From: a virus
Length of the DNA stretch: 64,000 nucleotides
Direction: 5' to 3' (one strand)
IMG/VR virus record: IMGVR_UViG_3300045988_183727
A program made the translations under genes and the position numbers. The notes beneath the pieces are model-generated. The model saw only the letters and a list, made by a program, of their open reading frames with translations, was not told the origin of the DNA and did no database searches. Shown piece by piece: positions 19,630-57,144 of this stretch; the stretch's first letter is position 1; each line of letters opens with the position of its first letter.

Positions 19630-19717
19630 GGAGAGGTGGCCGAGTGGTTGAAGGCACCGGTCTTGAAAACCGGCGATGCGAAAGCATCCGTGGGTTTGAA
19701 TCCCACTCTCTCCGCCA
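19630..19717 (+). tRNA. tRNA-Ser (anticodon TGA), CCA encoded
   Basis: Acceptor GGAGAGG/TCTCTCC, D-arm GTGGCCGAGTGG, anticodon loop CTTGAAA, long variable arm, T-loop GGTTTGAATCC. Confidence 0.9.
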
Positions 19718-19728
19718 AAAAAAAACAA

Positions 19729-19859
19729 GTACGGACGGTATAACCGGAATTAACGCCTGTGGAGATGCATGGTCGTCGCGGAAGCAGGAATACTCTGTTG
19801 GCTGGCAATCACGTGAGAGGTGACGACCAGCACCTTGGGGGAACTGAATACCTGTGCTG
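19729..19859 (+). ncRNA. Omega-RNA-like scaffold, copy A (structured RNA family, 5 copies)
   Basis: GTACGGACGGTATAACCGGAATTAACGCCTGTGGAGATGCATGG...GCTGG-CAA-TCAC-GTGAGAG-GTGA-CGA-CCAGC...GGGGGAAC plus the linker TGAATACCTGTGCTGG. The central hairpin covaries among copies. Confidence 0.7.
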
Positions 19860-20053
19860 GGTATACACCACCCAGAAATAGCAGGGTACTATACCACAAG
19901 ATGCCGCACGTTGAATTTGAGTGGCGGTATACACCACCCAGAAAAAAACAGGGTACTATACCATCTCATTGCACACTGGCATATACCCGTTATCGTAAAG
20001 GATATGTCACGGTTAGGGGTATACACCACCCCGAAATAACAGGGTTGTATACC
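19860..20053 (+). repeat. Hairpin-repeat mini-array A (3 repeats; CRISPR-like layout)
   Basis: Repeats at 19860-19895, 19926-19962 and 20018-20053 (GGTATACACCACCCnGAAATAACAGGGTTGTATACC). The spacers are 30 and 55 nt, and the latter contains a degenerate repeat. Confidence 0.7.
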
Positions 20054-29788: not shown

Positions 29789-29855
29789 GATGTTTTCTCC
29801 TTTCTCCCAGCCTGTGATAAGGACTTACGGGAAACCAAAATAAAATGTATATATA

Positions 29856-29992
29856 GAAAAAGACAATCACTGCCCGAAAAGGGAAGTGATTGTCTGAATT
29901 TATGATGTGACTTGAAAAACGGAGATAAAACTCCTTATAAAAATATCTTCGTAATTATACTATTATACTACCACGTTTCGCTATTTTGTCAA
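29856..29992 (-). promoter_or_regulatory. Promoter-leader-terminator cassette 1
   Basis: Minus strand: TTGACA (29992-29987), 16 nt, TAGTAT (29970-29965), then TATAAT-like (29959-29954), GGAG-n6-CTCC GTTTTT, and the terminator AGACAATCACTTCCC/GGGCAGTGATTGTCT + T5 (29895-29856). Confidence 0.75.
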
Positions 29993-36235: not shown

Positions 36236-36368
36236 AAAAAGACAGTCGTTCCCAAATGAGAACAACTGTCTTGAATATGATGATGTGACTGAAAACGGAG
36301 ATAAATCTCCTTATAAAAATATCTTCGTAATTATACTACTATACTACCACAATTCTTTATAATGTCAA
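36236..36368 (-). promoter_or_regulatory. Promoter-leader-terminator cassette 2
   Basis: TTGACA (36368-36363), 16 nt, TAGTAT (36346-36341), TATAAT-like (36335-30), GGAGATTTATCTCC GTTTTC, and the terminator AAGACAGTTGTTCTC/GGGAACGACTGTCTT + T5 (36272-36236). Confidence 0.75.
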
Positions 36369-41388: not shown

Positions 41389-41658
41389 TTACATCTCGCC
41401 ATCCTCGGCAGCGGTTATAATACCGAATCTGAGGTTGTTGTTGATGTCGTAGATACTTAATCCGCTATCAAAGTCCTTGCGGAGCTGCGTCGCAGCGGCC
41501 TCTACGGAGTCTTCGCCGTACTCAAACGTCTCGGACTCGACGCAGGTTGCCACAAGCTCCTTCAGCTTTGCGCGGGAAGTCGTCGCAGAAACCAGACGCA
41601 TAGAGTCTGTTGCTTTCCAAGCGTCACAGGCAAACACGATGAAGATAGGATTACTCAT
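41389..41658 (-). CDS. Hypothetical protein (89 aa)
   Basis: The internal ATG at 41658 overlaps the end of the upstream gene. Confidence 0.55.
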   Translation of the reverse strand: MSNPIFIVFACDAWKATDSMRLVSATTSRAKLKELVATCVESETFEYGEDSVEAAATQLRKDFDSGLSIYDINNNLRFGIITAAEDGEM

Positions 41659-42229
41659 TTTCGGCTTGCTCCTTTCTTCTTCCAACGGTGGCTGCGGGGT
41701 ACGGTGTGGCCCGCTTGTTGTTGCTGTCCATGATTCGCATAACATGGACAAGCATCTCGGAATATGCCCTGTGCATGGTTTCATACCGCGCACGCCATGT
41801 ATTATCATCATTGTCGTTCACGCGAGCACTCAGCCCCATGCTGTAGTACAGCGCGGCGTCGATGTCTACCAGCTCCGCTTCAGTCAGGTGGCAGATATAG
41901 GCTCCCAGCTCATTGACAGAAACTGCCATCGGCTGCTCGCACAGTGCTGTGCTGGGGCGGCTCGTGCTCGTGATGAGTACATGGGAGGGCTGCTGCATCT
42001 TTGGAGATGATGTCGTAAATACGACCTCCACTACACTGCTGTAGCGGTTCAGGTCATCCGAAGATACAACGATTGCGGGACGATGCCCTCTGATAACAGA
42101 GCTATTGGAAGGATGTCCGTCTTTATCGCGGAACTGGCTTCCTTCCGGGGCCCAAGGGGAAAAGATTTCGATTTCTTTCGCATTGACCCAAAAAACATCG
42201 CCCCTGCGGATGTTTCCATTTCTACCCAT
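41651..42229 (-). CDS. PemK/MazF-family toxin-like protein with a ~70-aa C-terminal extension
   Basis: RRGDVFWV...GHRPAIVVSSDDLN...VVEVVFTTSS...PSHVLI...STALCEQPMAVSVNELG matches the MazF/PemK pattern. Confidence 0.7.
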   Translation of the reverse strand: MGRNGNIRRGDVFWVNAKEIEIFSPWAPEGSQFRDKDGHPSNSSVIRGHRPAIVVSSDDLNRYSSVVEVVFTTSSPKMQQPSHVLITSTSRPSTALCEQPMAVSVNELGAYICHLTEAELVDIDAALYYSMGLSARVNDNDDNTWRARYETMHRAYSEMLVHVMRIMDSNNKRATPYPAATVGRRKEQAENE

Positions 42230-43262: not shown

Positions 43263-43394
43263 AAAAAGACAGCTATCCCTGTCTTGGGATAACTGTCTTG
43301 AATACTTGGTGTGACTGGAAGCGGAGATAAGTCTCCTTATAAAAATATCTTCGTAATTATACTATTATACTACCACAATTATTTATAATGTCAA
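43263..43394 (-). promoter_or_regulatory. Promoter-leader-terminator cassette 4
   Basis: TTGACA (43394-43389), 16 nt, TAGTAT (43372-67), TATAAT-like, GGAGACTTATCTCC, and the terminator AAGACAGTTATCCC/GGGATAGCTGTCTT + T5 (43299-43263). Confidence 0.75.
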
Positions 43395-44610: not shown

Positions 44611-45575
44611 TTGTTTTCCTCCTTAAAGTGTTCAAGTCTTTCGGAAAACTTTTGCAGCGCTTTTCTAAACTCAATTTTGCAGGTGGTTGACATGAAATAA
44701 TAGGCGGAAACAATATCTTCTGTCGTAGAGTTTTTCGCATAAAGTCGCATTGTGCTTGGCATCCCCATGAGCCAGTGTAAAGAGACGCCAAAGGCAGCCG
44801 CTATATGCGGCAGAATTCTTTCGTTGCTTGTGGAGCAGGAGGGTCTCACCAACATGATATTCGCCAACTCGTGAATGACATCCTTTTGTTTATCATCTAA
44901 TTCAAAATTGCCTTTTCCGGACTGAATCAATTCATCCAAATCGAGAATATCCTGTCGCTTAAATGAACATCTGTGGGAAAAAACGTACTGTACTCGCGCA
45001 GAAGGGCGCAGCAATAAGCTGCGTTTTTTATCATCCCAGAATTGATGTATCCACATCGTATCAATCATGCCGAGAGCGGACTCTCTTATGCATCCGTCTC
45101 TTATCGTTTCTGGAAAGCTATCTACAAGATTATAGACTTCTTGAACATCTGGCGGTAGGCTGCTGAAAGCTGGAAAGTTTTTATCTCCGAATCGAATCAT
45201 TTCCTCGTAAGATATGTCCAACTCGGCAAGAATCCGAAAAACGATTTGCCAGTTAAATCCCTGCCAGCCTATAAATCGCTGTGTTTCTCCGTTTGTAACG
45301 GGAGTTTTATCAAATAAAAGGGCTGGCAGCTTTTCTTCTGGACAATTAAGCTGTTCGGCTAACCGCAGCTTTTTCATTTCTGCCCTGTATGGCGTGGTGT
45401 CTGTGATAATGTTGTTTACTCTTGCCATGTTGCCTGCATCCTCCGCAATTCTTAATTTGCGGAGGAGCAGGACTATAGAGGTATAGACAGTTGTTGAGAC
45501 GTTTTCTCCGTACCTTATATCGTCTCCAGCTCGTGCCGGCTTTGTAGGATTTGTTCTTTTATAAATAGCACTCAT
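44607..45575 (-). CDS. Hypothetical protein (322 aa) with XRE-like HTH segments
   Basis: ILPHIAAAFGVSLHWLMG and FRILAELDISYEEMIRFG are HTH-like. Overlaps the recG stop. Confidence 0.65.
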   Translation of the reverse strand: MSAIYKRTNPTKPARAGDDIRYGENVSTTVYTSIVLLLRKLRIAEDAGNMARVNNIITDTTPYRAEMKKLRLAEQLNCPEEKLPALLFDKTPVTNGETQRFIGWQGFNWQIVFRILAELDISYEEMIRFGDKNFPAFSSLPPDVQEVYNLVDSFPETIRDGCIRESALGMIDTMWIHQFWDDKKRSLLLRPSARVQYVFSHRCSFKRQDILDLDELIQSGKGNFELDDKQKDVIHELANIMLVRPSCSTSNERILPHIAAAFGVSLHWLMGMPSTMRLYAKNSTTEDIVSAYYFMSTTCKIEFRKALQKFSERLEHFKEENK

Positions 45576-47647
45576 TTTCTTGATGCCTCCTTTGCGGTAT
45601 TGTCGGTCTCCTGACCTCCCGCGATTATGGAATCGACCATTTTGCAGGAACCTTTTCCTCTGTTCAAAAGTGTCTTTGCGTCCTCCTTTGCCTGTTCGTA
45701 CTCAGCGGGGTATGCCATCATAAGGGTCATATATCGGTTCCATCCGGATTGTTCTGTGCCGAGGAAATCTCCGGCACCTCTAATGCGGAGGTCCGCCTCT
45801 GCAATTTCAAACCCGTTATTGGTCTGTACCATGGCGTTCAGTCTCTCCATCGCAGCCGGCGTGGGCGACGCGCCTGCTTCCAGCACACAATAGGACTGTA
45901 CGCTGCTCCGCCCTACACGCCCTCTCAACTGGTGCAGACTGGAAAGCCCGAAACGGTCCGCGTTTACAATGACCATCATTGTCGCGGTAGGGACATTTAC
46001 GCCAACCTCCACAACGGTTGTACTGACAAGCACATCTACTTGACCATCCTTGAATCGCGAGAGAATGTCCTCCGTTTCTGTCTTTCCCATCTTGCCTGTT
46101 ACTGTTTCGATGCGGACGCCATACGGCTCCAGAACAGAACGGTATTCTGCGCTGACCTCCTCGACAGACTGTACGCCTTCCAGTTTTTCGCTTCTATCAA
46201 TAAGCGGACAGACAACATAGGTTTGATACCCCTTTTGTTTCTGCAGCAGAATGAAGCGAAAGATTTTTTCTTTACTTGTGGCAATACCGGTAATAACTGG
46301 AAGACGTCCGTCCGGCATCGTTTTAATGGTGTGGAGCTGCACGGTATCCCCATAAATTACCTGAGCCAGACTGCGGGGGATGGGGGTGGCAGACATAGTA
46401 ATAGAATGAACACCGCCTGAAGCCTTTTCGATGAGCGCTGTACGCTGGTCAACGCCAAACTTGTGTTCCTCATCCGTTACGGTTAAGGCGAGATTTTTAT
46501 ACTCCACATCTTCTCCAATGATGGACTGTGTTCCAACAATGAGCTGTGCCTTGCCTTCCTTGATGGCGGCCAAGGCTTTTTTCTTTTCGCTCGTCTTCAA
46601 ATCGCTGCCAAGCCAAACAACACTTACGTCAAACGGTTCCGCCAGAGCAGAGAGGTCCTCGTAGTGCTGACGCGCCAACACCAGCGTTGGAGCCATCACC
46701 GCTGCCTGATACCCATTCTCAGCCATGGTCATCATAAGGCAAAAGGCAACGATGCTCTTTCCACAACCGACATCACCCTGCACAAGCGCGTTGATGCGAT
46801 GCCCGTCTGCTGCAAATTGAGTCATGCTCTCAATCGCGTCCATCTGGTCTTTTGTGAGAGAATAGGGCAGGGACTTCTTAATCTTTTCAATCCAGCCGTT
46901 TGTTTTGACGGAGAATTGGCTACCTTTAGAAATCTTTCGTGCGGCCCATTCGTTAGCCATAGCAAAATATACGAGGTCTTCCTGAAGGAGTCGGGATTGA
47001 CCATCCTTAATATCCTGCTCGGAAACGGGGAAGTGCAGCTTCTTGAGTGAAGTCCAAAGGCTTGAAAGACCTTTTTTGTCGAGGAAATCATTGGGAAGCG
47101 TTTCAATAAGTCCGATAGTTCTGTCGGAAGCCTCCTGAATCTTTTCTCTCAGGTAGGCATCGCTCACGCCTCCGATTTGAGCGTACACAGGACGAATGCC
47201 CGGTGCCTGCCCATAGGCAGGCTCGAAAATCTCCGGTGCCGTCATGGTGTAGTTGTTGTATTTCTCGCTGTATCCGACCTTTCCAGCCACATAAACCTCC
47301 TGCCCTGTGCAAGTGGAAATCTTGCGGAAGAGGTAGTTTTGCCGGAACCATGTAATAACGAGTTTTTCTCCGCTTGGAAGCACCGTGCAGTGTGCGATAA
47401 TCATAGGGACATGAGAGGAAGTCTGCACATAAGAACCCTTATAGCGCAGTTCTTGGCCGAAGGACTTCACTTCGTCTACACGTACAAGACAAGCCTGCTC
47501 CGCACCATCTATGAGATGCGTTGCAAGCTGCCGGTAGTCCTTATAGCTTTTTGGGATATAACGCAGAAGGTCTTCTGCTGAGTGGATACCTTTTTTCTCG
47601 AAACGCTTTTCCTTTTGTGCGTTTACTCCAATGACGGATAGCTTCAT
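45572..47647 (-). CDS. recG: ATP-dependent DNA helicase RecG
   Basis: Wedge domain plus SF2 helicase: GDVGCGKS (Walker A), VTDEEHKFGV (DEEH), QLRGRVGR. The internal ATG at 47647 follows ggaggtgagaacatat. Confidence 0.9.
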   Translation of the reverse strand: MKLSVIGVNAQKEKRFEKKGIHSAEDLLRYIPKSYKDYRQLATHLIDGAEQACLVRVDEVKSFGQELRYKGSYVQTSSHVPMIIAHCTVLPSGEKLVITWFRQNYLFRKISTCTGQEVYVAGKVGYSEKYNNYTMTAPEIFEPAYGQAPGIRPVYAQIGGVSDAYLREKIQEASDRTIGLIETLPNDFLDKKGLSSLWTSLKKLHFPVSEQDIKDGQSRLLQEDLVYFAMANEWAARKISKGSQFSVKTNGWIEKIKKSLPYSLTKDQMDAIESMTQFAADGHRINALVQGDVGCGKSIVAFCLMMTMAENGYQAAVMAPTLVLARQHYEDLSALAEPFDVSVVWLGSDLKTSEKKKALAAIKEGKAQLIVGTQSIIGEDVEYKNLALTVTDEEHKFGVDQRTALIEKASGGVHSITMSATPIPRSLAQVIYGDTVQLHTIKTMPDGRLPVITGIATSKEKIFRFILLQKQKGYQTYVVCPLIDRSEKLEGVQSVEEVSAEYRSVLEPYGVRIETVTGKMGKTETEDILSRFKDGQVDVLVSTTVVEVGVNVPTATMMVIVNADRFGLSSLHQLRGRVGRSSVQSYCVLEAGASPTPAAMERLNAMVQTNNGFEIAEADLRIRGAGDFLGTEQSGWNRYMTLMMAYPAEYEQAKEDAKTLLNRGKGSCKMVDSIIAGGQETDNTAKEASRK

Positions 47648-47770
47648 ATATGTTCTCACCTCCGTGTGGTGGGAAAATGTTAGGGTGTCGGGGTGCTTTT
47701 CGTGAACTACTCGGCAATAAATCACCGAGGATTCTTGCTTACTTCTTATAAAGAGGGCTTACACACCCTT

Positions 47771-47800
47771 ATTATAAACACGAACATAAAATTTTGTCAA
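47771..47800 (-). promoter_or_regulatory. Promoter of the recG operon (conserved family)
   Basis: The minus strand reads cTTGACAAAATTTTATGTTCGTGTTTATAAT. Confidence 0.7.
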
Positions 47801-47960
47801 GTGTGTTAGAGAGAAAATTTACTGGATGTCAACCTTTTTTCTTTTGCATATTCGTTATTATTGCCAACTATTTTTCCGTAAAATACAGCTTGCTTTAGTT
47901 TGCGCGGCACGCTTTGCGGCGTATAAACTCGCGGTATAGCTTTTTTTTCTGATAATTAGA

Positions 47961-47989
47961 CTTGACATTTTTATATGTTCGTGTTAGTA
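47961..47989 (+). promoter_or_regulatory. Promoter of the conserved family driving the leader and tRNA cluster
   Basis: cTTGACATTTTTATATGTTCGTGTTAGTAT. Divergent from the recG promoter. Confidence 0.7.
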
Positions 47990-48300
47990 TAACAGCGTGG
48001 ACAGGGCAAGAAAGGCTCGTTCGAAGGGCTCGTGCCTAAAATGACAATATTCTTGCGATTGTAAGAATAAGCGCCTAAATTGCCCGTCCCGTTTTCTTCT
48101 TTCTTTAATTACACTCATAAGCACAATAAAGTCAGCTCCCTGAGGGAAGTGTGCGGGAGTTGCTTCGACTTTCGCGTTGTTCTCCATGCGGGGAGGTTCT
48201 GGCGGTTCGAGTCCGCACGACGCGCCTTCTGTTTTCGCTGCTTCTATCTTCACCTCCGTCTTTTTAACGAGCAGCGGACACAGAAACATCTCTCAATATG

Positions 48301-48379
48301 ATAGCGTAGCATAACTGGTAATGCCGTACCTCTCTCACAGGTAACGATATGTTGGTTCAACTCCAGCCGCTATTGCCAG
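48301..48379 (+). tRNA. Atypical tRNA-like gene, probable anticodon CTC (Glu), CCA encoded
   Basis: Acceptor GATAGCG/CGCTATT, D-arm GCAT-AACTGGTA-ATGC, anticodon stem TACCT/AGGTA with loop CTCTCAC, T-arm GTTGG-TTCAACT-CCAGC. There is one extra nt between the D and anticodon stems and a 7-nt variable loop. Confidence 0.5.
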
Positions 48380-48484
48380 CCGGCGTTCTACCCACCCCGC
48401 CGACATCAACTCTCTTCGGCGCTGGCGGCCTCCGTGCAGACGGGATTACACGTGATAAGCGGAGGCTGCCAGCACCACCAAAAT

Positions 48485-48560
48485 GCTGGTGTAGCTCAGT
48501 AGGCAGAGCGGCGCACTCGTAACGCGCAGGTCGTGGGTTCGACCCCCACCGTCAGCTCCA
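48485..48560 (+). tRNA. tRNA-Thr (anticodon CGT), CCA encoded
   Basis: GCTGGTG...TAGCTCAGTAGG...anticodon loop CTCGTAA...GGTTCGACCCC...CGTCAGC-T-CCA. Confidence 0.85.
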
Positions 48561-48652
48561 TTCCATACTCATTCTCCTTCAAGTGAAGCCCCCGTGTAAC
48601 AGGTCTTTTGAAAAGTGCTTTCAGCCTCGTTGTGCGGGGGCTTCACGACTAT

Positions 48653-48728
48653 GCTGATGTAGCTCAGTTGGCAGAGCGGCGGATTTGTAAACCGCAGGTC
48701 GGGGGTTCAAGGCCCTCCATCAGCTCCA
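48653..48728 (+). tRNA. tRNA-Thr (anticodon TGT), CCA encoded
   Basis: GCTGATG TAGCTCAGTTGG...anticodon loop TTTGTAA...GGTTCAAGGCC...CATCAGC-T-CCA. Confidence 0.85.
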
Positions 48729-48763
48729 TTAAAACCATGTGCTTTTGTGGTGTTTTTATATGC

Positions 48764-48840
48764 GCGGATGTCGTCTAATTTGGTGAGACACCAGCCTTCC
48801 AAGCTGGTCATTGCGGGTTCGAGTCCCGTCGTCCGCTCCA
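48764..48840 (+). tRNA. tRNA-Gly (anticodon TCC), CCA encoded
   Basis: GCGGATG...anticodon stem CCAGC/GCTGG with loop CTTCCAA...GGTTCGAGTCC...CGTCCGC-T-CCA. Confidence 0.85.
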
Positions 48841-48867
48841 AGGACACCGTAAAGTGTGTCCTTTTTT
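48841..48867 (+). terminator. Rho-independent terminator after the tRNA cluster
   Basis: aggacac cgtaaagt gtgtcct followed by T6. Confidence 0.8.
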
Positions 48868-49229
48868 CTTTATCTGCTTATTTGTCCTGTGTTTTTCGGA
48901 CAACATCGGTGAGCGCAAAAGTCGCCTGAAGCGTGAGAAGCGAGCTGCCTGCATCTGTTTTGCGGGCGGTGGCGTGATAAGGGTGAAACTCTGCGCTTTC
49001 AGTAGCCGTAAGCAGGTGAGCAAAAGTCTCTGCGAACGCCTGCATGGTTCGCGGGACAAGGGAAGCCGGAAAAATAAGTAAACGCGGGCCGAGCGCAGAG
49101 GTTGTTGGCGTATTCCAGACGTGGGTGCTGCCTTTTATGCTGTGCTTGTTTGCGTGGGGTCCGGTGTTCTCGCAGTCTGGATGGTTGCTGCGAGAGGTGC
49201 CAAAACTTATTGCGAAAGGACGGAGTTCT

Positions 49230-50288
49230 ATGCCAACTACATTTCAAGCGTTTAAGTATCGCATTTACCCGACTGATGAGCAGGTCGAAATCATTGAAAA
49301 GACTTTCAAGTGCTGCCGGTTTGTGTGGAACCATTTCCTTGAGCGAACCTCCAAAATCTATGACCGTCGGCAGGAAAAGATGACGACCTTCGACTGTATG
49401 AAGGTTCTCACGGAGATGCGGGAGCGCTGGCCTTGGCTTGCGGACTGCGGCTGTACGGCAGAGAGATATGCCATCATTGATTTGTTTGAGGCGCGAAAGG
49501 CGTTCTTCCGCCGCATTAAAGCGGGGGAGAAGCCCGGTTATCCCAAATTTAAGGGCGCGTCCCATCCGACACAGAGTTTTACGACCGCTGGTACTATCTA
49601 TGTGACGGACGATTACATTCAGGTTCCGTTTGGAGGACAGTATCAGAAAATCAACAAGCTCAGGCGAGGGACGGGGCGCCCCATCGAAGGGTCTCCCCGC
49701 GAGGTCACTATTTCTCGGTCTGCTACCGGAAAATACTGGGCATCTGTCTGCTGTAAAGTAGAGCGAGACACGCTGCCTATTGTGGACGGCGAGGTGGGAA
49801 TCAGTCTCGGCCTGAAGGAGTTGGCTATTGACAGCAACGGCGTTCACTATGAGAACCCGAAGCATCTGAGCAAGTCTGCAAAGCGGTTGGCACGTGAGCA
49901 GCGGCGTCTATCCCGCAAGAAGAAGGGCTCTGTCAACTACGAGAAGCAGCGGCGCAAGGTAGCCGGCGTCCATGAGCATATTGCCAATCAGCGCAATGAC
50001 TACCGGCATAAAATCAGCCGTGAACTTGTCAACGCAAACCAGCTTATTGCCGTTGAGAAGGTGGCCGTTAAGCCCTTAGTTGAGGGCAATGAGCAGGCTA
50101 AAAGCATCCTCGATGCCGGCTGGTCTGAACTTACCGGTATGATAAAGTATAAGGCGGACTGGGCTGGACGCACTCTGGTGGACGTAGATACCGCCACCGT
50201 AGCACCGGAAGCCAAGCATGATGAGGCACTGGCACAGGTCGTGCTGTCCGAAGGTCAGCGCATGGCTTCCGAGCAGAAGCCTGCCTAA
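49230..50288 (+). CDS. TnpB-like protein, predicted nuclease-dead and C-terminally truncated (TldR-like); could alternatively be a decaying tnpB
   Basis: N-terminal FKYRIYPTDEQ (OrfB/TnpB). RuvC-I reads VGISLGLK where the family consensus has GIDLG (D to S). RuvC-II has IAVEKV. The ORF stops after KADWAGRTLVDVD, before the zinc finger and RuvC-III. ATG at 49230 follows aaaggacgg. Confidence 0.8.
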   Translation: MPTTFQAFKYRIYPTDEQVEIIEKTFKCCRFVWNHFLERTSKIYDRRQEKMTTFDCMKVLTEMRERWPWLADCGCTAERYAIIDLFEARKAFFRRIKAGEKPGYPKFKGASHPTQSFTTAGTIYVTDDYIQVPFGGQYQKINKLRRGTGRPIEGSPREVTISRSATGKYWASVCCKVERDTLPIVDGEVGISLGLKELAIDSNGVHYENPKHLSKSAKRLAREQRRLSRKKKGSVNYEKQRRKVAGVHEHIANQRNDYRHKISRELVNANQLIAVEKVAVKPLVEGNEQAKSILDAGWSELTGMIKYKADWAGRTLVDVDTATVAPEAKHDEALAQVVLSEGQRMASEQKPA

Positions 50289-50322: not shown

Positions 50323-50344
50323 ATTGCCAAGGAAATAAAAACGA

Positions 50345-50473
50345 GTACGGACGGTATAGCCGGAATTAACGCCTGTGGAGATGCATGGTCGTCGTGGAAG
50401 CAGGAATACTCTGTTGGCTGGTAGTCACGTGAGAGGTGGCACCAGCGCTTTGGGGAACTGAATACCTGTGCTG
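50345..50473 (+). ncRNA. Omega-RNA-like scaffold, copy C (cognate position 57 nt downstream of the TnpB-like gene)
   Basis: Same family as A, B, D and E. Central hairpin GCTGG-TAG-TCAC-GTGAGAG-GTGG-CA-CCAGC, ending GGGGAAC plus TGAATACCTGTGCTGG. Confidence 0.75.
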
Positions 50474-50563
50474 GGTATACACCACCCGGAAATAACAGGG
50501 TTGTATACCAATTCATGGCGTCTCCTTTTGGTATACACCACCCGGAAATAACAGGGTTTTACC
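50474..50563 (+). repeat. Hairpin-repeat mini-array C (2 repeats, 20-nt spacer)
   Basis: Repeats at 50474-50509 and 50530-50563. The spacer is AATTCATGGCGTCTCCTTTT. Confidence 0.7.
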
Positions 50564-50663
50564 ATTCGTAATTATAGTTCTTCCCTCCGCTGTGTGGAGC
50601 GTTTTGTCGAAATGACAAAACATTCCTCTTAAATTCTTAAAAACAAGAAAGGAAATAAAGAAT

Positions 50664-51791: not shown

Positions 51792-51811
51792 CGCTAAATA
51801 CCTAAAAGCAA

Positions 51812-51942
51812 GTACGGACGGTATAACCGGAATTAACGCCTGTGGAGATGCATGGTCATCGTGGAAGCAGGAATGCTCTGTTAGCTGGTTTTCATGTGAG
51901 AGATGATGCCAGCAGCTAAGGGAACTGAATATGCCTGTGTTG
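51812..51942 (+). ncRNA. Omega-RNA-like scaffold, copy D
   Basis: Central hairpin GCTGG-TTT-TCAT-GTGAGAG-ATGA-TG-CCAGC (TCAT/ATGA covaries with TCAC/GTGA). Linker TGAATATGCCTGTGTTGG. Confidence 0.7.
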
Positions 51943-52155
51943 GGTGTATGAGGCCCTGAAATGACAGGGGTGTATACCATATAATCTGTCGCTTGAGGAG
52001 ACAGGCGTATAGAGCCCAGAAATAACAGGGTTGTATACCCCTTAACCGCGCTCCAACTTTCAATCCTAAGGTGTATAAGGGCCTGAAATAACGGGGTGAT
52101 ACCTCAGTTATTCCTTTTAGGTACATAACGGGCTAAAACAACAGGGTAGTGTACC
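51943..52155 (+). repeat. Hairpin-repeat mini-array D (4 repeats)
   Basis: Repeats at 51943-51978, 52005-52039, 52071-52103 and 52121-52155. Spacers are 26, 31 and 17 nt. The 3' arm CAGGGTTGTATACC is conserved while the 5' arm varies but keeps pairing. Confidence 0.7.
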
Positions 52156-52743: not shown

Positions 52744-53252
52744 TGTATATGTCTCAGAAAGAGTTCAACGCTATGATGAAGAAAAACCCCCGCCTCCGTG
52801 TTCACGGTGCAAATAACAATACCCGCGAACATCGCTCCAAAGCGAATAAGGCGGCAAAATATAGAAATGTAAAGGTCTACGAGTATGCCGATGGGCTGGC
52901 TTTTTTCGGTAAGCCCCGCAATAATGGTGAAATCCCTATCGCTGTCTTTGACAGCAAGAAGGAGTACCACCGCTGGAAAGAGCTTCAGATTTTGGAGCGC
53001 GGCGGACATATCCACGACCTTCGCCGGCAGGTGCCTTTGACCATCATTACCGAGTTCGAGTATCGTGGTCAGAAGGTCTCCGGTATTACTTACAAAGCCG
53101 ACGCCGTCTATGTGCGCGACGGCAAGTGTGTGGTAGAGGACGTGAAGCCCTTCGATACCACAACGCAGAAGTATCGAACTACAAAGGATTTCAACCTCAA
53201 GTGGAAGCTGCTCAAGGCTGAATATCCTACTTGGTCTTTTGAAATCTATTAA
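52743..53252 (+). CDS. DUF1064-family protein (phage-type, nuclease-fold)
   Basis: KYRNVKVYEYADGLAFFGKPRN..., FDSKKEYHRWKELQILERGGHI..., ITYKADAVYVRDGKCVVEDVKP... follows the DUF1064 pattern. The start overlaps the upstream stop (TAATG). Confidence 0.65.
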   Translation: MYMSQKEFNAMMKKNPRLRVHGANNNTREHRSKANKAAKYRNVKVYEYADGLAFFGKPRNNGEIPIAVFDSKKEYHRWKELQILERGGHIHDLRRQVPLTIITEFEYRGQKVSGITYKADAVYVRDGKCVVEDVKPFDTTTQKYRTTKDFNLKWKLLKAEYPTWSFEIY

Positions 53253-53258
53253 AAACGA

Positions 53259-53390
53259 GTACGGATGGTATAACCGGAATTAACGCCTGTGGAGATGCAT
53301 GGTCGTCGTGGAAGCAGGAATACTCTGTTGGCTGGTAATCATGTGAGAGATGATACCGGCACCTTTGGGGAACTGAATATGCCTGTGTCG
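53259..53390 (+). ncRNA. Omega-RNA-like scaffold, copy E
   Basis: Central hairpin GCTGG-TAA-TCAT-GTGAGAG-ATGA-TA-CCGGC, whose U-G pair is only allowed on the + strand RNA. Linker TGAATATGCCTGTGTCGG. Confidence 0.7.
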
Positions 53391-53533
53391 GGTATATAGA
53401 ACCCTGAAACGACAGGGTTGTGTATCACAGAATAACTGCGGCAGCGGCATATATGGCTCTGAAACAACAGGGTTGTATACCGCATAAAAAAGGCTATGGT
53501 GTGTAATACCCTGAAATAACAAGGTTGTGTACC
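53391..53533 (+). repeat. Hairpin-repeat mini-array E (3 repeats)
   Basis: Repeats at 53391-53426, 53447-53481 and 53499-53533. Spacers are 20 and 17 nt. Confidence 0.7.
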
Positions 53534-53718
53534 CCATAACATATTGTTTCTGAAAGTGGTGGACGGCAAGTGGAAAATCTGAGCAACATCCGGTGGCGAG
53601 TTCATCTGTAAGACCTGCTACGGTGGAGGGAGCGGTATTTTCCTTGCCTACTTCGACCTCGTGCAGTGAGTGATTGCAGGGCTTTCGACGGTTCCGCAAA
53701 TTTGTTCGTTCCAAGAAC

Positions 53719-55659: not shown

Positions 55660-57144
55660 ATGACGATGGTCTATGTGCAAAATAAAGACGGTAAACCTTT
55701 GATGCCGACAACTCGCTATTGTTATGTGCGCCTTCTCCTGAAGGAGAAGAAAGCACGAGTTGTTTGCACTACCCCGTTTACCATCCAGTTGAACTATGAT
55801 ACCCCAGACATCACCCAAGACTTGATTCTTGGCATCGACCCCGGCAGAACGAACATTGGTGTCGCTGTCGTCAAGGAGGACGGCCAATGCGTGTTCTCCG
55901 CACATCTGGAGACGCGCAATAAGGACGTACCTCTTCTGATGCAGAAGCGTGCCGGTTTCCGTAAGCAGCATCGCACGTTGGACCGGCGCCGCAAGCGCCA
56001 GCGTCGTGCGAAGGCTGCTGGGACCACCGTTGCCGGGGGTTCTGTCGAGAGATTGCTCCCCGGCTATGAGAAGCCCATTGTGTGCCACCATATCCGCAAT
56101 AAGGAGGCGCGGTTCAATAACCGTAGCCGCCCTGTGGGATGGTTGACACCTACAGCAAATCACCTGCTGCAAACCCACATCAACCTGATTGCAAAGGTTG
56201 CGAAGTTCTTACCTATCACGAAAGTGGTGGTGGAGCTGAACCGCTTTGCATTCATGGCGATGGATAATCCCAATATCCGTCGGTGGGAGTACCAGCAGGG
56301 GCCGTTGTACGGACTGGGTTCCGTGGAGGATGCGGTGTACGCACAGCAGGATGGACATTGCCTGTTCTGCAAGAAGCCCATTGACCATTACCATCATGTT
56401 GTTCCACGCCACAAGGGTGGAAGTGAGACGCTGGCTAACCGGTGTGGGCTTTGTGCGAAGCATCACGACCTCGTCCATAAGGACAAGGCGTGGGCGGATA
56501 AGCTGGTCACACGCAAGGAAGGTATGAATAAAAAGTACCACGCCTTGAGTGTTCTGAACCAGATTATCCCGCATCTCATGGAGTATCTCGGAGGCGAGAC
56601 TCTCTACGATGTCTATGCCACGGATGGTAAGTCCACCAAGGGCTTCCGCGTTGCCAAGAACGTGCCGAAAGAACATTACACGGATGCCTACTGTATCGCC
56701 TGTTCCATTTTGGATGCGAATACGAAGGTCTCCACACCTGCCGAACCCTTTAAGCTGAAGCAGTTCCGTCGGCACGACCGGCAATCCTGCATCCGCCAAA
56801 TGGTTGACCGGAAGTACCTTCTGGATGGCAAGGTCGTTGCAGCAAACCGGCATAAGGCCATTGAGCAAAAGTCCGATAGCCTGCAGGAGTTCCGTGAGGC
56901 TTACGGCGATGCTGCGGTATCGCAGCTCACCGTGAAACCTCACTCGCCCCAGTACAAGGACATGACTCGTATCATGCCGGGGGCGGTGATGGATTTCGGT
57001 GGCGCTGTCGGGATTCTTCAGGGGTCGGAAGGCTTCCATAACGGCAAGCCGGACTACTATAAATCTACGAAAGGAGAACGGGTTTTAACGAGGAGATGTG
57101 CGCTTCTCGCACAGAACGCAGGCATGGTTTTCATTCCCGCCTGA
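55660..57144 (+). CDS. iscB: IscB RNA-guided nuclease (PLMP, RuvC, bridge helix and HNH)
   Basis: DGKPLMPT (PLMP), [14 protein letters not shown] (RuvC-I), Arg-rich [25 protein letters not shown]...[38 protein letters not shown] (RuvC-III). 494 aa. Confidence 0.9.

Follow-up and report, generated by a model that had tools for sequence, protein, structure and literature searches.

We analysed a 64,000-nt stretch of DNA (hereafter the window), catalogued in IMG/VR as virus record IMGVR_UViG_3300045988_183727, and found in it a putative tRNA operon of an uncharacterised mobile element whose non-tRNA parts are conserved as structures. The operon lies on the plus strand at 47962-48873. Its leader contains an H-type pseudoknot that is kept in all three clades of relatives and a tRNA-shaped element without an anticodon arm, which we call tRNA-like element 1 (TLE-1). 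Here we show the anatomy of this region, its conservation and covariation among relatives, its tRNA calls, and its promoter and terminator motifs. The reading that we favour, and to which we give about an even chance, is that the region as a whole would be a polycistronic precursor whose leader, tRNA-like element and spacer hairpins serve processing and regulation.

The relatives were retrieved with the protein sequence of a RecG-like helicase encoded next to the operon and with DNA patterns from the locus, and they fall into three clades. Clade A (helicase 99% identical) comprises the window and many contigs, clade B (87% identical) includes the Logan contigs L084-L087, and clade C (67% identical) consists of C1 (L049-L054) and C2 (L055). 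L044 and L065 were discarded as chance matches.

The region starts with a sigma-70-type promoter (TTGACA-17-TAGTAT, TG-extended, 10/12 matches; 47962-47990, plus strand), which is conserved in clades A and B, and the clade C leaders have equivalent TTGACA promoters. It ends with an intrinsic terminator, AAGGACAC..GUGUCCUU followed by a U-run (48840-48873, plus strand), for which a terminator scan gave the hairpin and T-run at 48840-48863. In clade B this terminator reads GGACGCC..GGCGUCC plus a U-run, the hairpin being kept via changes on both strands. The order of the parts is leader, tRNA-Glu(CUC), hairpin 1, tRNA-Thr(CGU), hairpin 2, tRNA-Thr(UGU), tRNA-Gly(UCC) and terminator, and clade A, clade B and the B-like Logan contigs all have these four tRNAs in the same order.

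The initial annotation, which a model had made from the sequence of the window, placed a promoter ahead of about 310 nt without a credible open reading frame (ORF), and this holds. The ORFs listed for the leader are one of 101 aa on the minus strand and one of 73 aa on the plus strand. Both were rejected as coding, because 1-nt indels at 48091 and 48260 occur among 99%-identical relatives and an indel of ~340 nt separates clade B, in which the leader is longer by that length. In clade A, substitutions and 1-nt indels concentrate in the leader. A GUG start after the GAGGGA loop was also set aside, since it lies too near the loop and meets a stop after 8 codons in clade C. Thus, given the frame-breaking indels in clade A and the indel in clade B, the leader has no conserved ORF. 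One promoter-like and one terminator-like site therefore bracket a region without a conserved ORF, from which we infer that 47962-48873 is a single transcription unit, strongly promoted, polycistronic and purely non-coding.

The leader pseudoknot and its covariation in three clades

The comparison of the three clades delimited an H-type pseudoknot at 48113-48162 (plus strand), a structure that was absent from the initial annotation. Its leading sequence, ACUCAUAA, is followed by the 5′ strand GCACA (48121-48125) and then AUAAAGU. The hairpin stem is formed by CAGCUCCC (48133-48140) and GGGAGUUG (48155-48162), and between them lie the loop UGAGGGAAG (48141-48149) and the 3′ strand UGUGC (48150-48154), which pairs with GCACA. 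The stem reads CAGCUCCC / GGGAGYUG in clade A, CAGCCUCC / GGAGGCUG in clade B, CAGACGCC / GGCGUCUG in C1 and CAGGCGCC / GGCGUCUG in C2. Meanwhile, the pseudoknot helix is GCACA / UGUGC in clade A, GCGCA / UGCGC in clade B and GCACG / CGUGC in clade C. Over six distinct sequences from the three clades, the 13 pairs are paired in 78/78 cells, and 5/13 pairs have changed on both sides; slid controls were 22-55% paired. The covariance model (R1) found a single copy in the window (99 bits) and a single copy in each related locus.

A search of Rfam 15 with the leader (47990-48300) of clades A, B and C gave chance-level matches only, even at E up to 10. T-box elements, riboswitches, ROOL/GOLLD RNAs and small ribozymes were considered and rejected, as none of them had Rfam support. 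We propose the pseudoknot as a previously unclassified structure and a candidate new regulatory RNA motif.

The same arrangement precedes it in all clades, namely the promoter, a 5′ domain with a closing helix and a CU-rich tract. The whole 311-nt leader is more structured than its shuffles (z = -3.1), mostly owing to this 5′ domain (47994-48093, plus strand), which combines a long closing helix with two inner hairpins (minimum free energy -41.2 kcal/mol; z = -4.3 / -4.0; 0/200 shuffles). An equivalent closing helix is predicted in clades B and C, and the sequence differs in clade C. The pyrimidine (CU) tract UUUUCUUCUUUCUUU (48092-48106, plus strand) comes directly after the domain; it is identical in clades A and B and reads UUAUCUUCUUUC or UUUUCUCUUUUC in clade C. 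The tract could form the tail of a terminator or pair with the purine-rich loop. Its pairing with the GAGGGAAG loop is possible in all clades, but only via G-U wobbles and, in C2, a shifted register; this pairing showed no covariation and is not claimed.

What follows the pseudoknot varies. In clades A and B, TLE-1 begins 10-11 nt later and the tRNAs come next, with no U-run in between. In C1, the stem is followed by U5, ~170 nt and a gene for an HU-family DNA-binding protein (L049 1142-1417), and there are no tRNAs. In C2, U4 comes next, then a tRNA-like element and then a TnpB gene. No HU gene is present downstream of the tRNAs in the window, and no HU homologue was found elsewhere in it. 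Since the leader heads differing cargos, it is a module in its own right and not a by-product of the tRNA cluster. In addition, a U-run in clade C and TLE-1 in clades A and B would be alternative RNA ends, which fits a discrete leader RNA. We infer that the leader acts as a stable small RNA and/or as a promoter-proximal regulatory element.

It is possible, and we put it forward tentatively, that the leader is instead a cis-acting attenuator or antitermination element, riboswitch-like or protein-dependent, and that TLE-1 is incidental. This explanation is compatible with a processed precursor and sets another emphasis. It fits the unchanging position of the leader immediately behind the promoter with any of the cargos (tRNAs in clades A and B, HU in C1, TnpB in C2), the U/C-rich tract after the 5′ domain and the clade C pseudoknot stem, which is terminator-like in being followed by U4-U5. 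Other operons of the element, on the minus strand near 29855-29975 and 43265-43376, also have a promoter and then a terminator-like hairpin with a U-run. However, no U-run follows the pseudoknot stem in clades A and B, the aptamer-before-terminator order is not evident for the 5′ domain, and no Rfam riboswitch or antiterminator family matched.

The promoter module TTGACA-17-TAGTATAAT, with a conserved transcribed start, is repeated on the minus strand at 29921-29975 and 43322-43376 and near 36324 and 40311. In the two modules that were read (29921-29975 and 43322-43376), a terminator-like hairpin and a U-run precede the first gene. Attenuation close to the promoter may be a general trait of the element.

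TLE-1, the spacer hairpins and the tRNA genes

TLE-1 (48173-48226, plus strand; comparative) has the shape of a tRNA without its anticodon arm. The acceptor helix of 7 bp is formed by CGCGUUG and CGACGCG (48173-48179 / 48218-48224), and UU follows its 5′ strand. The D stem CUCC / GGAG (48182-48185 / 48192-48195) closes the loop AUGCGG, which contains GG. A linker of 5-6 nt, G then UUCU(G), joins the D arm to the T arm, and the T arm consists of a 4-5-bp stem, (G)GCGG / CCGC(A) (48201-48205 / 48213-48217), with the canonical T loop UUCGAGU (48206-48212). The initial annotation had described a T arm closed by an acceptor-like helix, with neither a D arm nor an anticodon arm, at 48182-48230. The element is real and indeed has no anticodon arm, but a D-arm-like hairpin does exist and the span has to be shifted by about 9 nt.

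Over 11 distinct variants, the 16 pairs of TLE-1 are 95.5% paired, and four pairs have changed on both sides, with wobble intermediates; slid controls were 35-63% paired. These data suggest that TLE-1 is maintained as a tRNA ‘top half’ under structural selection. If the helix is read one nucleotide shorter, clade B has GCCA or ACCA at the position after TLE-1, whereas the window has GCCU. ARAGORN did not call TLE-1 in the window or in the related loci, and no Rfam tRNA model matched it in the window; the copy in L011 matched tRNA-Sec at 16.9 bits with E = 3.6 only.

Further tRNA-like elements are confined to single clades. TLE-2 occurs only in clade B, and it has normal acceptor, D and T arms and a 7-bp ‘anticodon’ stem that encloses a 22-nt branched insert. 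ARAGORN reported it as an 89-nt tRNA-Trp(cca) in L084 and L086, which we judged unreliable given this stem and insert. TLE-C occurs only in C2; it reaches 29.6 bits with the tRNA-Sec model, for which the threshold is 47. C1 has no tRNA-like element. The gain and loss of TLE-2 and TLE-C, together with an insertion into TLE-1 described below, indicate tRNA-derived modules with high turnover.

The spacers also contain hairpins. Between TLE-1 and tRNA-Glu lies a hairpin with a pyrimidine-rich loop (48227-48285, plus strand; inverted repeat I3; z = -2.8), whose stems are kept and whose loop varies, both within clade A and between clades A and B. A small hairpin, CCGGCG / CGCCGA with the C-rich 12-nt loop UUCUACCCACCC (48380-48403, plus strand), is near-invariant in clades A and B. 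The overlapping segment 48383-48408 resembles a decayed tRNA 3′ half (repeat D2, 65% identity).

Hairpin 1 (48421-48477, plus strand) has a 14-bp GC-rich stem, a 25-nt loop and a terminal ACCA (48474-48477), and it is far more stable than its shuffles (-37.9 kcal/mol, z = -6.6, 0/200 shuffles). In clade A, its GCUG..CAGC-ACCA reproduces pairs 1-4 of the acceptor stem in the neighbouring tRNA-Thr. In clade B, the core stem GGCGGCCUCC / GGAGGCCGCC is conserved, but the outer GCUG / CAGC, the loop and the ACCA are not: the apical 25 nt are replaced or deleted, the deletion leaving a 13-bp stem with a 5-nt loop, and the tail is AACUACCAAAACUU (AACUACCAAAAC) or AUCGACCCAAAAU. The claim of a CCA-ending minihelix in the initial annotation was thus right about the hairpin and its ACCA in the window. 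A conserved CCA minihelix, which would need ~12 bp of acceptor/T-type helix and then a discriminator plus CCA, was rejected, because the outer pairs and the CCA are absent in clade B and so are specific to clade A.

Hairpin 2 (48583-48646, plus strand) stands between the two tRNA-Thr genes, where the initial annotation had placed a 67-nt perfect-stem hairpin (48582-48648), and has a perfect 12-bp outer stem that can be extended to ~22 bp (-37.8 kcal/mol, z = -6.2, 0/200 shuffles). Clade B keeps the outer stem, and inner pairs are changed on both strands (GAAGCCCCCG.. vs GAAGCCCUCACAG..). The tails of hairpins 1 and 2 are ACCACCAAAAU and GACUAUG, respectively, and neither hairpin is in the terminator scan list. 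Without a U-run, they are not terminators. Neither stem was found elsewhere in the window; as single-copy stems, they are not dispersed palindromic repeats (REP / MITE / PATE).

We propose that one precursor would run from the leader RNA through TLE-1, the hairpin and tRNA-Glu, the GC-rich hairpins flanking the Thr genes and tRNA-Gly to the terminator. TLE-1, TLE-2 and TLE-C would be what is left of earlier tRNA genes. In a tRNA, it is the acceptor/T-arm stack and the D/T elbow that RNase P, RNase Z and the CCA-adding enzyme recognise, rather than the anticodon arm, and the elements may have been retained because this tRNA ‘top half’ is the part to which these enzymes respond. TLE-1 would then act as punctuation that cuts the leader RNA from the tRNA part and sets the 3′ end of the leader, and in clade C the U-run after the pseudoknot stem would do this job. 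The GC-rich spacer hairpins may be folding insulators, exonuclease barriers or double-strand-specific cleavage sites, and would not be tRNA minihelices. In this manner, the element would place an autonomous pseudoknotted leader before different cargos.

Several observations count against this proposal. The fold energy of TLE-1 is unexceptional against shuffles (z = -0.45), so that the case for it rests on conservation and covariation. Only three clades were present in the databases searched, and the covariation therefore rests on few independent events. The acceptor registers of TLE-1 are indistinguishable, as a 7/5 form with discriminator C fits as well as a 7/4 form with G/A plus CCA in clade B. 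In four clade A contigs (L008, L010, L027 and L033), a 1.4-kb insertion splits TLE-1 just before the T arm (between positions equivalent to 48201 and 48202 of the window), so that an intact TLE-1 is not required, at least over short times. L066 lacks hairpin 2 and half of each Thr gene.

These observations raise the question of neutral decay, in which the tRNA-like elements and hairpins would be functionless remnants of a larger tRNA array, trimmed off and degraded with the spacers, and only the four tRNAs would matter. We consider this unlikely. The turnover of the elements among clades B, C1 and C2, the tolerated insertion in TLE-1, the loss of hairpin 2 in L066, the remaining likeness of 48383-48408 to a tRNA 3′ half, and the replaced or deleted apex and clade-specific ACCA of hairpin 1 would all follow from decay. 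However, TLE-1 has stayed 95.5% paired despite many substitutions between clades A and B, including the four doubly changed pairs, and random loss would hit its T loop and stems first. The hairpin stems and the terminator have also changed in a compensatory way, and the pseudoknot is conserved across the deeper split to the clade with 67% helicase identity. The compensatory changes thus contradict pure neutral decay. The initial annotation had itself allowed that the extra structures might be only processing signals or decayed tRNAs. The comparative data favour a version of that idea, but the view of these parts as only spacer to be removed is too weak, given the covariation of the pseudoknot and the structural selection on TLE-1.

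A bolder possibility is a new class of mobile-element RNA, in which a pseudoknotted leader and anticodon-less, CCA(-like)-ended mimics would be cut by the RNase P/CCA machinery and act in trans, either as sponges or decoys for host factors that bind the elbow or the acceptor end or in a link to the probably nuclease-dead TnpB and scaffold RNAs described below. We regard it as very unlikely.

We find it highly improbable, too, that the elements are simply free tRNA mimics, that is, decoys or sponges in trans for defence nucleases, acceptor-end toxins or tRNA-binding regulators. TLE-1 does keep the acceptor/D/T ‘elbow’ under apparent selection and ends in GCCA or ACCA in clade B, like the four CCA-encoding tRNAs; hairpin 1 of clade A copies tRNA-Thr acceptor pairs plus ACCA; a MazF-family toxin gene lies on the element (41651-42229); and mobile-element tRNAs are known to counter tRNA-targeting defences (PMC10264068). 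Nevertheless, elements without anticodon loops cannot titrate the known anticodon nucleases, the CCA ends are unconserved (GCCU after TLE-1 in clade A, no CCA on hairpin 1 in clade B), TLE-1 can be disrupted, and the operon has no linked defence or toxin partner; the tethered tRNA-like decoys suggested in the initial annotation fall on the same grounds.

The tRNA genes were identified with ARAGORN and with the Rfam tRNA model RF00005 (gathering score 29). They are tRNA-Glu(CUC) at 48300-48378 (43.2 bits), tRNA-Thr(CGU) at 48485-48560 (60.3 bits), tRNA-Thr(UGU) at 48653-48728 (63.1 bits) and tRNA-Gly(UCC) at 48764-48840 (60.2 bits), all on the plus strand and all called by ARAGORN. The CCA end is encoded in 4/4 of them. 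The ARAGORN run that the initial annotation had called for, tmRNA mode included, gave these four tRNAs and no tmRNA in the window or the related loci, and Rfam likewise gave no tmRNA match. At gathering thresholds, Rfam lists both Thr genes and the Gly gene; tRNA-Glu was recovered only with permissive filters.

This tRNA-Glu(ctc) is the 79-nt tRNA-like gene with anticodon CTC of the initial annotation. Its cloverleaf is 98.6% paired over 6 variants, with double changes in two pairs, such as A4-U69 to G4-C69. It has the 7-bp acceptor, D arm, T arm and T loop UUCRANY of a tRNA, and its 7-nt anticodon loop CUCUCAC, with U33 and a purine at 37, is invariant in all variants. It departs from the standard 5-bp anticodon stem, single nucleotide 26 and 4-5-nt variable loop. 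The first pair is G1-U72, the cmscan alignment has one inserted nucleotide behind position 26 and four within the variable region, and in an alternative fold the anticodon stem is extended by two pairs (C-G and G-C) with a bulged A. On this comparative evidence, tRNA-Glu(CUC) is best regarded as a genuine, atypical and probably functional tRNA.

The four tRNAs would decode GAG, ACG, ACA and GGA. Among the window ORFs alone, GAG makes up 54% of Glu codons, ACG 25% and ACA 21% of Thr codons, and GGA 24% of Gly codons. The Thr genes form a 168-nt duplication (D1), which is clear for the tRNAs and ~9 nt upstream of them. The alignment of hairpin 1 with hairpin 2 is ambiguous with respect to the idea that a hairpin plus tRNA-Thr unit was duplicated. 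In L066 (human gut contig OROK01000373.1), a chimeric tRNA-Thr joins the CGU anticodon half to the 3′ half of the UGU gene, and the 168 nt between the Thr genes are absent, including hairpin 2; natural recombination or assembly collapse could explain this.

The mobile element and its TnpB

The RecG-like helicase (45572-47725; profile match) flanks the operon and is read from a minus-strand promoter with perfect consensus (47800-47771), which faces away from the operon promoter. Both promoters form a 41-nt inverted repeat (I1, arms 47777-47817 / 47945-47985, 73% complementary), and they have the spacer and extended -10 ATGTTCGTGTTA in common. In relatives, 2-3 tandem TTGTCAAG motifs lie between the two promoters, and these could be tandem promoters, operators or iterons.

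Similarity searches found no close relative of the window among annotated phages, plasmids and E. coli genomes (megablast against the phage and E. coli collections), and the matches of a distant blastn search against phages and plasmids were tRNAs only. Other genes of the window encode a MazF-type toxin, a topoisomerase III, a 1587-aa SpaA/TQ adhesin, a large serine recombinase, an RRXRR (IscB-like) protein and a TnpB; a sortase match is weak. No phage structural family was matched among the window ORFs scanned, and the plasmid relatives of the topoisomerase are overwhelmingly on conjugative plasmids. The element thus looks more like a conjugative element than a phage. For these reasons we call it an uncharacterised mobile element, despite its viral listing in IMG/VR, which also classes the related contigs (30-190 kb) as viral.

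Every related contig whose record names a sample comes from a human gut metagenome, and the helicase cluster has 1044 member sequences. No helicase relative was found in 185,579 species genomes, and the host genome was not found. A degenerate pattern of the pseudoknot gave 12 matches in species genomes, all of them by chance (inside coding regions and without the pairing). A Gram-positive gut host is suggested on the basis of only the sortase/SpaA/TQ adhesin genes and the encoded CCA ends.

As for the neighbouring genes, the MazF/PemK-family toxin (41651-42229 in the window; L049 6763-7299) lies at the syntenic place behind the helicase gene in both clade A and clade C. In addition, a 494-aa protein (55660-57144) has a strong RRXRR domain (PF14239, 2.4e-49), an N-terminal domain typical of IscB-type RNA-guided nucleases.

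Downstream of the operon lies a TnpB/OrfB_IS605 homologue of 352 aa (~49230-50288; the ORF is listed as 49044-50288, and the true start is near 49230). In clades A and B it occupies the same place behind the tRNA operon, with ~86% identity, and its N-terminus is also present in C2. It did not insert recently, as shown by this synteny and by a divergence on a par with that of the helicase. The alignment to ISDra2 TnpB spans residues 7-326 only and ends before the zinc finger and the third catalytic residue. Furthermore, the protein has a Ser (GISLGL vs GVDVGI) at what we take to be the position of the first RuvC Asp, the catalytic numbering being our assumption. The clade B protein has the same length, the same Ser and an identical C-terminus. 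As judged from these alignments, the TnpB is probably a conserved, truncated, domesticated and nuclease-dead protein. Nuclease-dead TnpB-like repressors (TldR) were reportedly described in 2024, and the window TnpB resembles them in a disrupted RuvC site, if the Ser position is as we presume, and in a C-terminal truncation kept by selection. The 1.4-kb insertion that splits TLE-1 in four contigs carries a second TnpB, 51% identical to the resident one.

Four RNA-scaffold-like arrays are present in the window (50340-50565, 19728-20053, 51811-52105 and 53250-53535). Each consists of a ~150-nt conserved scaffold and then 2-3 divergent 36-nt hairpin units (GGYRTAYA..CCNGAAAYAACAGGGTTGTATACC) with spacers of 20-55 nt, and no Rfam family matched them. 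The array at 50340-50565 comes directly after the truncated TnpB, and that at 19728-20053 starts ~10 nt after a tRNA-Ser(UGA) gene (19630-19717). The only candidate guide-target match is the 12-mer TTCGTAATTATA, which the tail of the TnpB-side array shares with four repeated promoters; we do not count it as evidence, since ~2-3 such 12-mers are expected by chance in a region of this size by our own estimate. This TnpB, apparently domesticated and nuclease-dead, and the four scaffold-RNA arrays may be of greater importance than the tRNA operon.

Known systems and the meaning of the operon

The tRNA region of phage T4 reportedly contains two small stable RNAs of unknown function. The operon is similar to the tRNA clusters of phages and mobile elements in that several tRNAs share one precursor, the promoter is element-borne and structured non-tRNA RNAs are embedded. 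As in those clusters, the tRNAs presumably add to the decoding capacity or stand in for host tRNAs that are targeted (PMC10264068). It differs in its pseudoknotted leader and anticodon-less tRNA shape, and its DNA similarity to them is limited to the tRNAs.

The mechanism proposed for TLE-1 and the leader is that of tRNA punctuation, as in mitochondria, in MALAT1-mascRNA and in the tRNA-miRNA units of MHV68, where a tRNA fold recruits RNase P/Z. However, those examples come from eukaryotes, organelles or herpesviruses, a small anticodon-like stem is still present in mascRNA, and cleavage at TLE-1 is our proposal. To our knowledge, no anticodon-less processing element has been described in a bacterial mobile element.

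In E. coli, 3′ETS-leuZ and the internal spacer of metZWV are tRNA-precursor spacers that survive as regulatory RNAs or sponges, and they are Hfq-dependent and enterobacterial. Such a fate would be possible for the spacer hairpins, including the C-rich-loop hairpin at 48380-48403. Small H-type pseudoknots are also known from the preQ1-I/II, SAM-II and guanidine-III riboswitches. The leader pseudoknot is similar to them in its length of ~50 nt, in its order of 5′ strand, hairpin and loop whose 3′ part pairs back, and in its A-rich connecting loop. It differs in having no Rfam match, in its conserved purine loop GAGGGAAG and in its cargo of tRNAs or an HU gene.

The tRNA-like domain of the Y RNA YrlA combines a D arm and a T arm with an acceptor-like stem and has no anticodon arm for decoding, and a YrlA-type RNA of M. 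smegmatis with a 7-bp acceptor is cut by RNase P and receives CCA (PMC4201824). The parts of YrlA are in permuted order, the acceptor-like stem-loop being placed between T arm and D arm, and there is a Ro60-binding helix with an rsr gene adjacent (PMC4201824). TLE-1 has the same three parts without a decoding anticodon arm, but in the normal tRNA order. No Rfam Y-RNA family matched, and no TROVE/Ro60 domain was found among the ORFs scanned, which were not all ORFs of the window. Other non-canonical tRNA derivatives are tRNA-Other of B. cereus, a pseudo-tRNA with a non-translational role (PMC3399842), and the allo-tRNAs, unusual cloverleaves with 8/4 or 9/3 acceptor branches (PMC5389517). These keep an anticodon arm, whereas TLE-1 has none. 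One of the several registers that fit TLE-1 gives it an 8-bp acceptor and a 4-bp T stem, as in the 8/4 allo-tRNAs.

Operons of tRNA genes on mobile elements, pseudo-tRNAs and spacer-derived RNAs are already known as such. We know of no described counterpart for a conserved anticodon-less tRNA shape in a bacterial element or for the pseudoknot leader motif.

Mobile tRNA clusters are usually read as a codon supplement or as counter-defence, and here non-tRNA parts of such a cluster appear to be under structural selection as well. If the proposal is true, TLE-1 would be a bacterial example of tRNA-type ‘punctuation’, which has so far been found mainly in organelles, eukaryotes and herpesviruses. 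Furthermore, the ~50-nt pseudoknot would be a candidate regulatory motif placed before different cargos in an element of the human gut whose helicase cluster has more than 1000 members.

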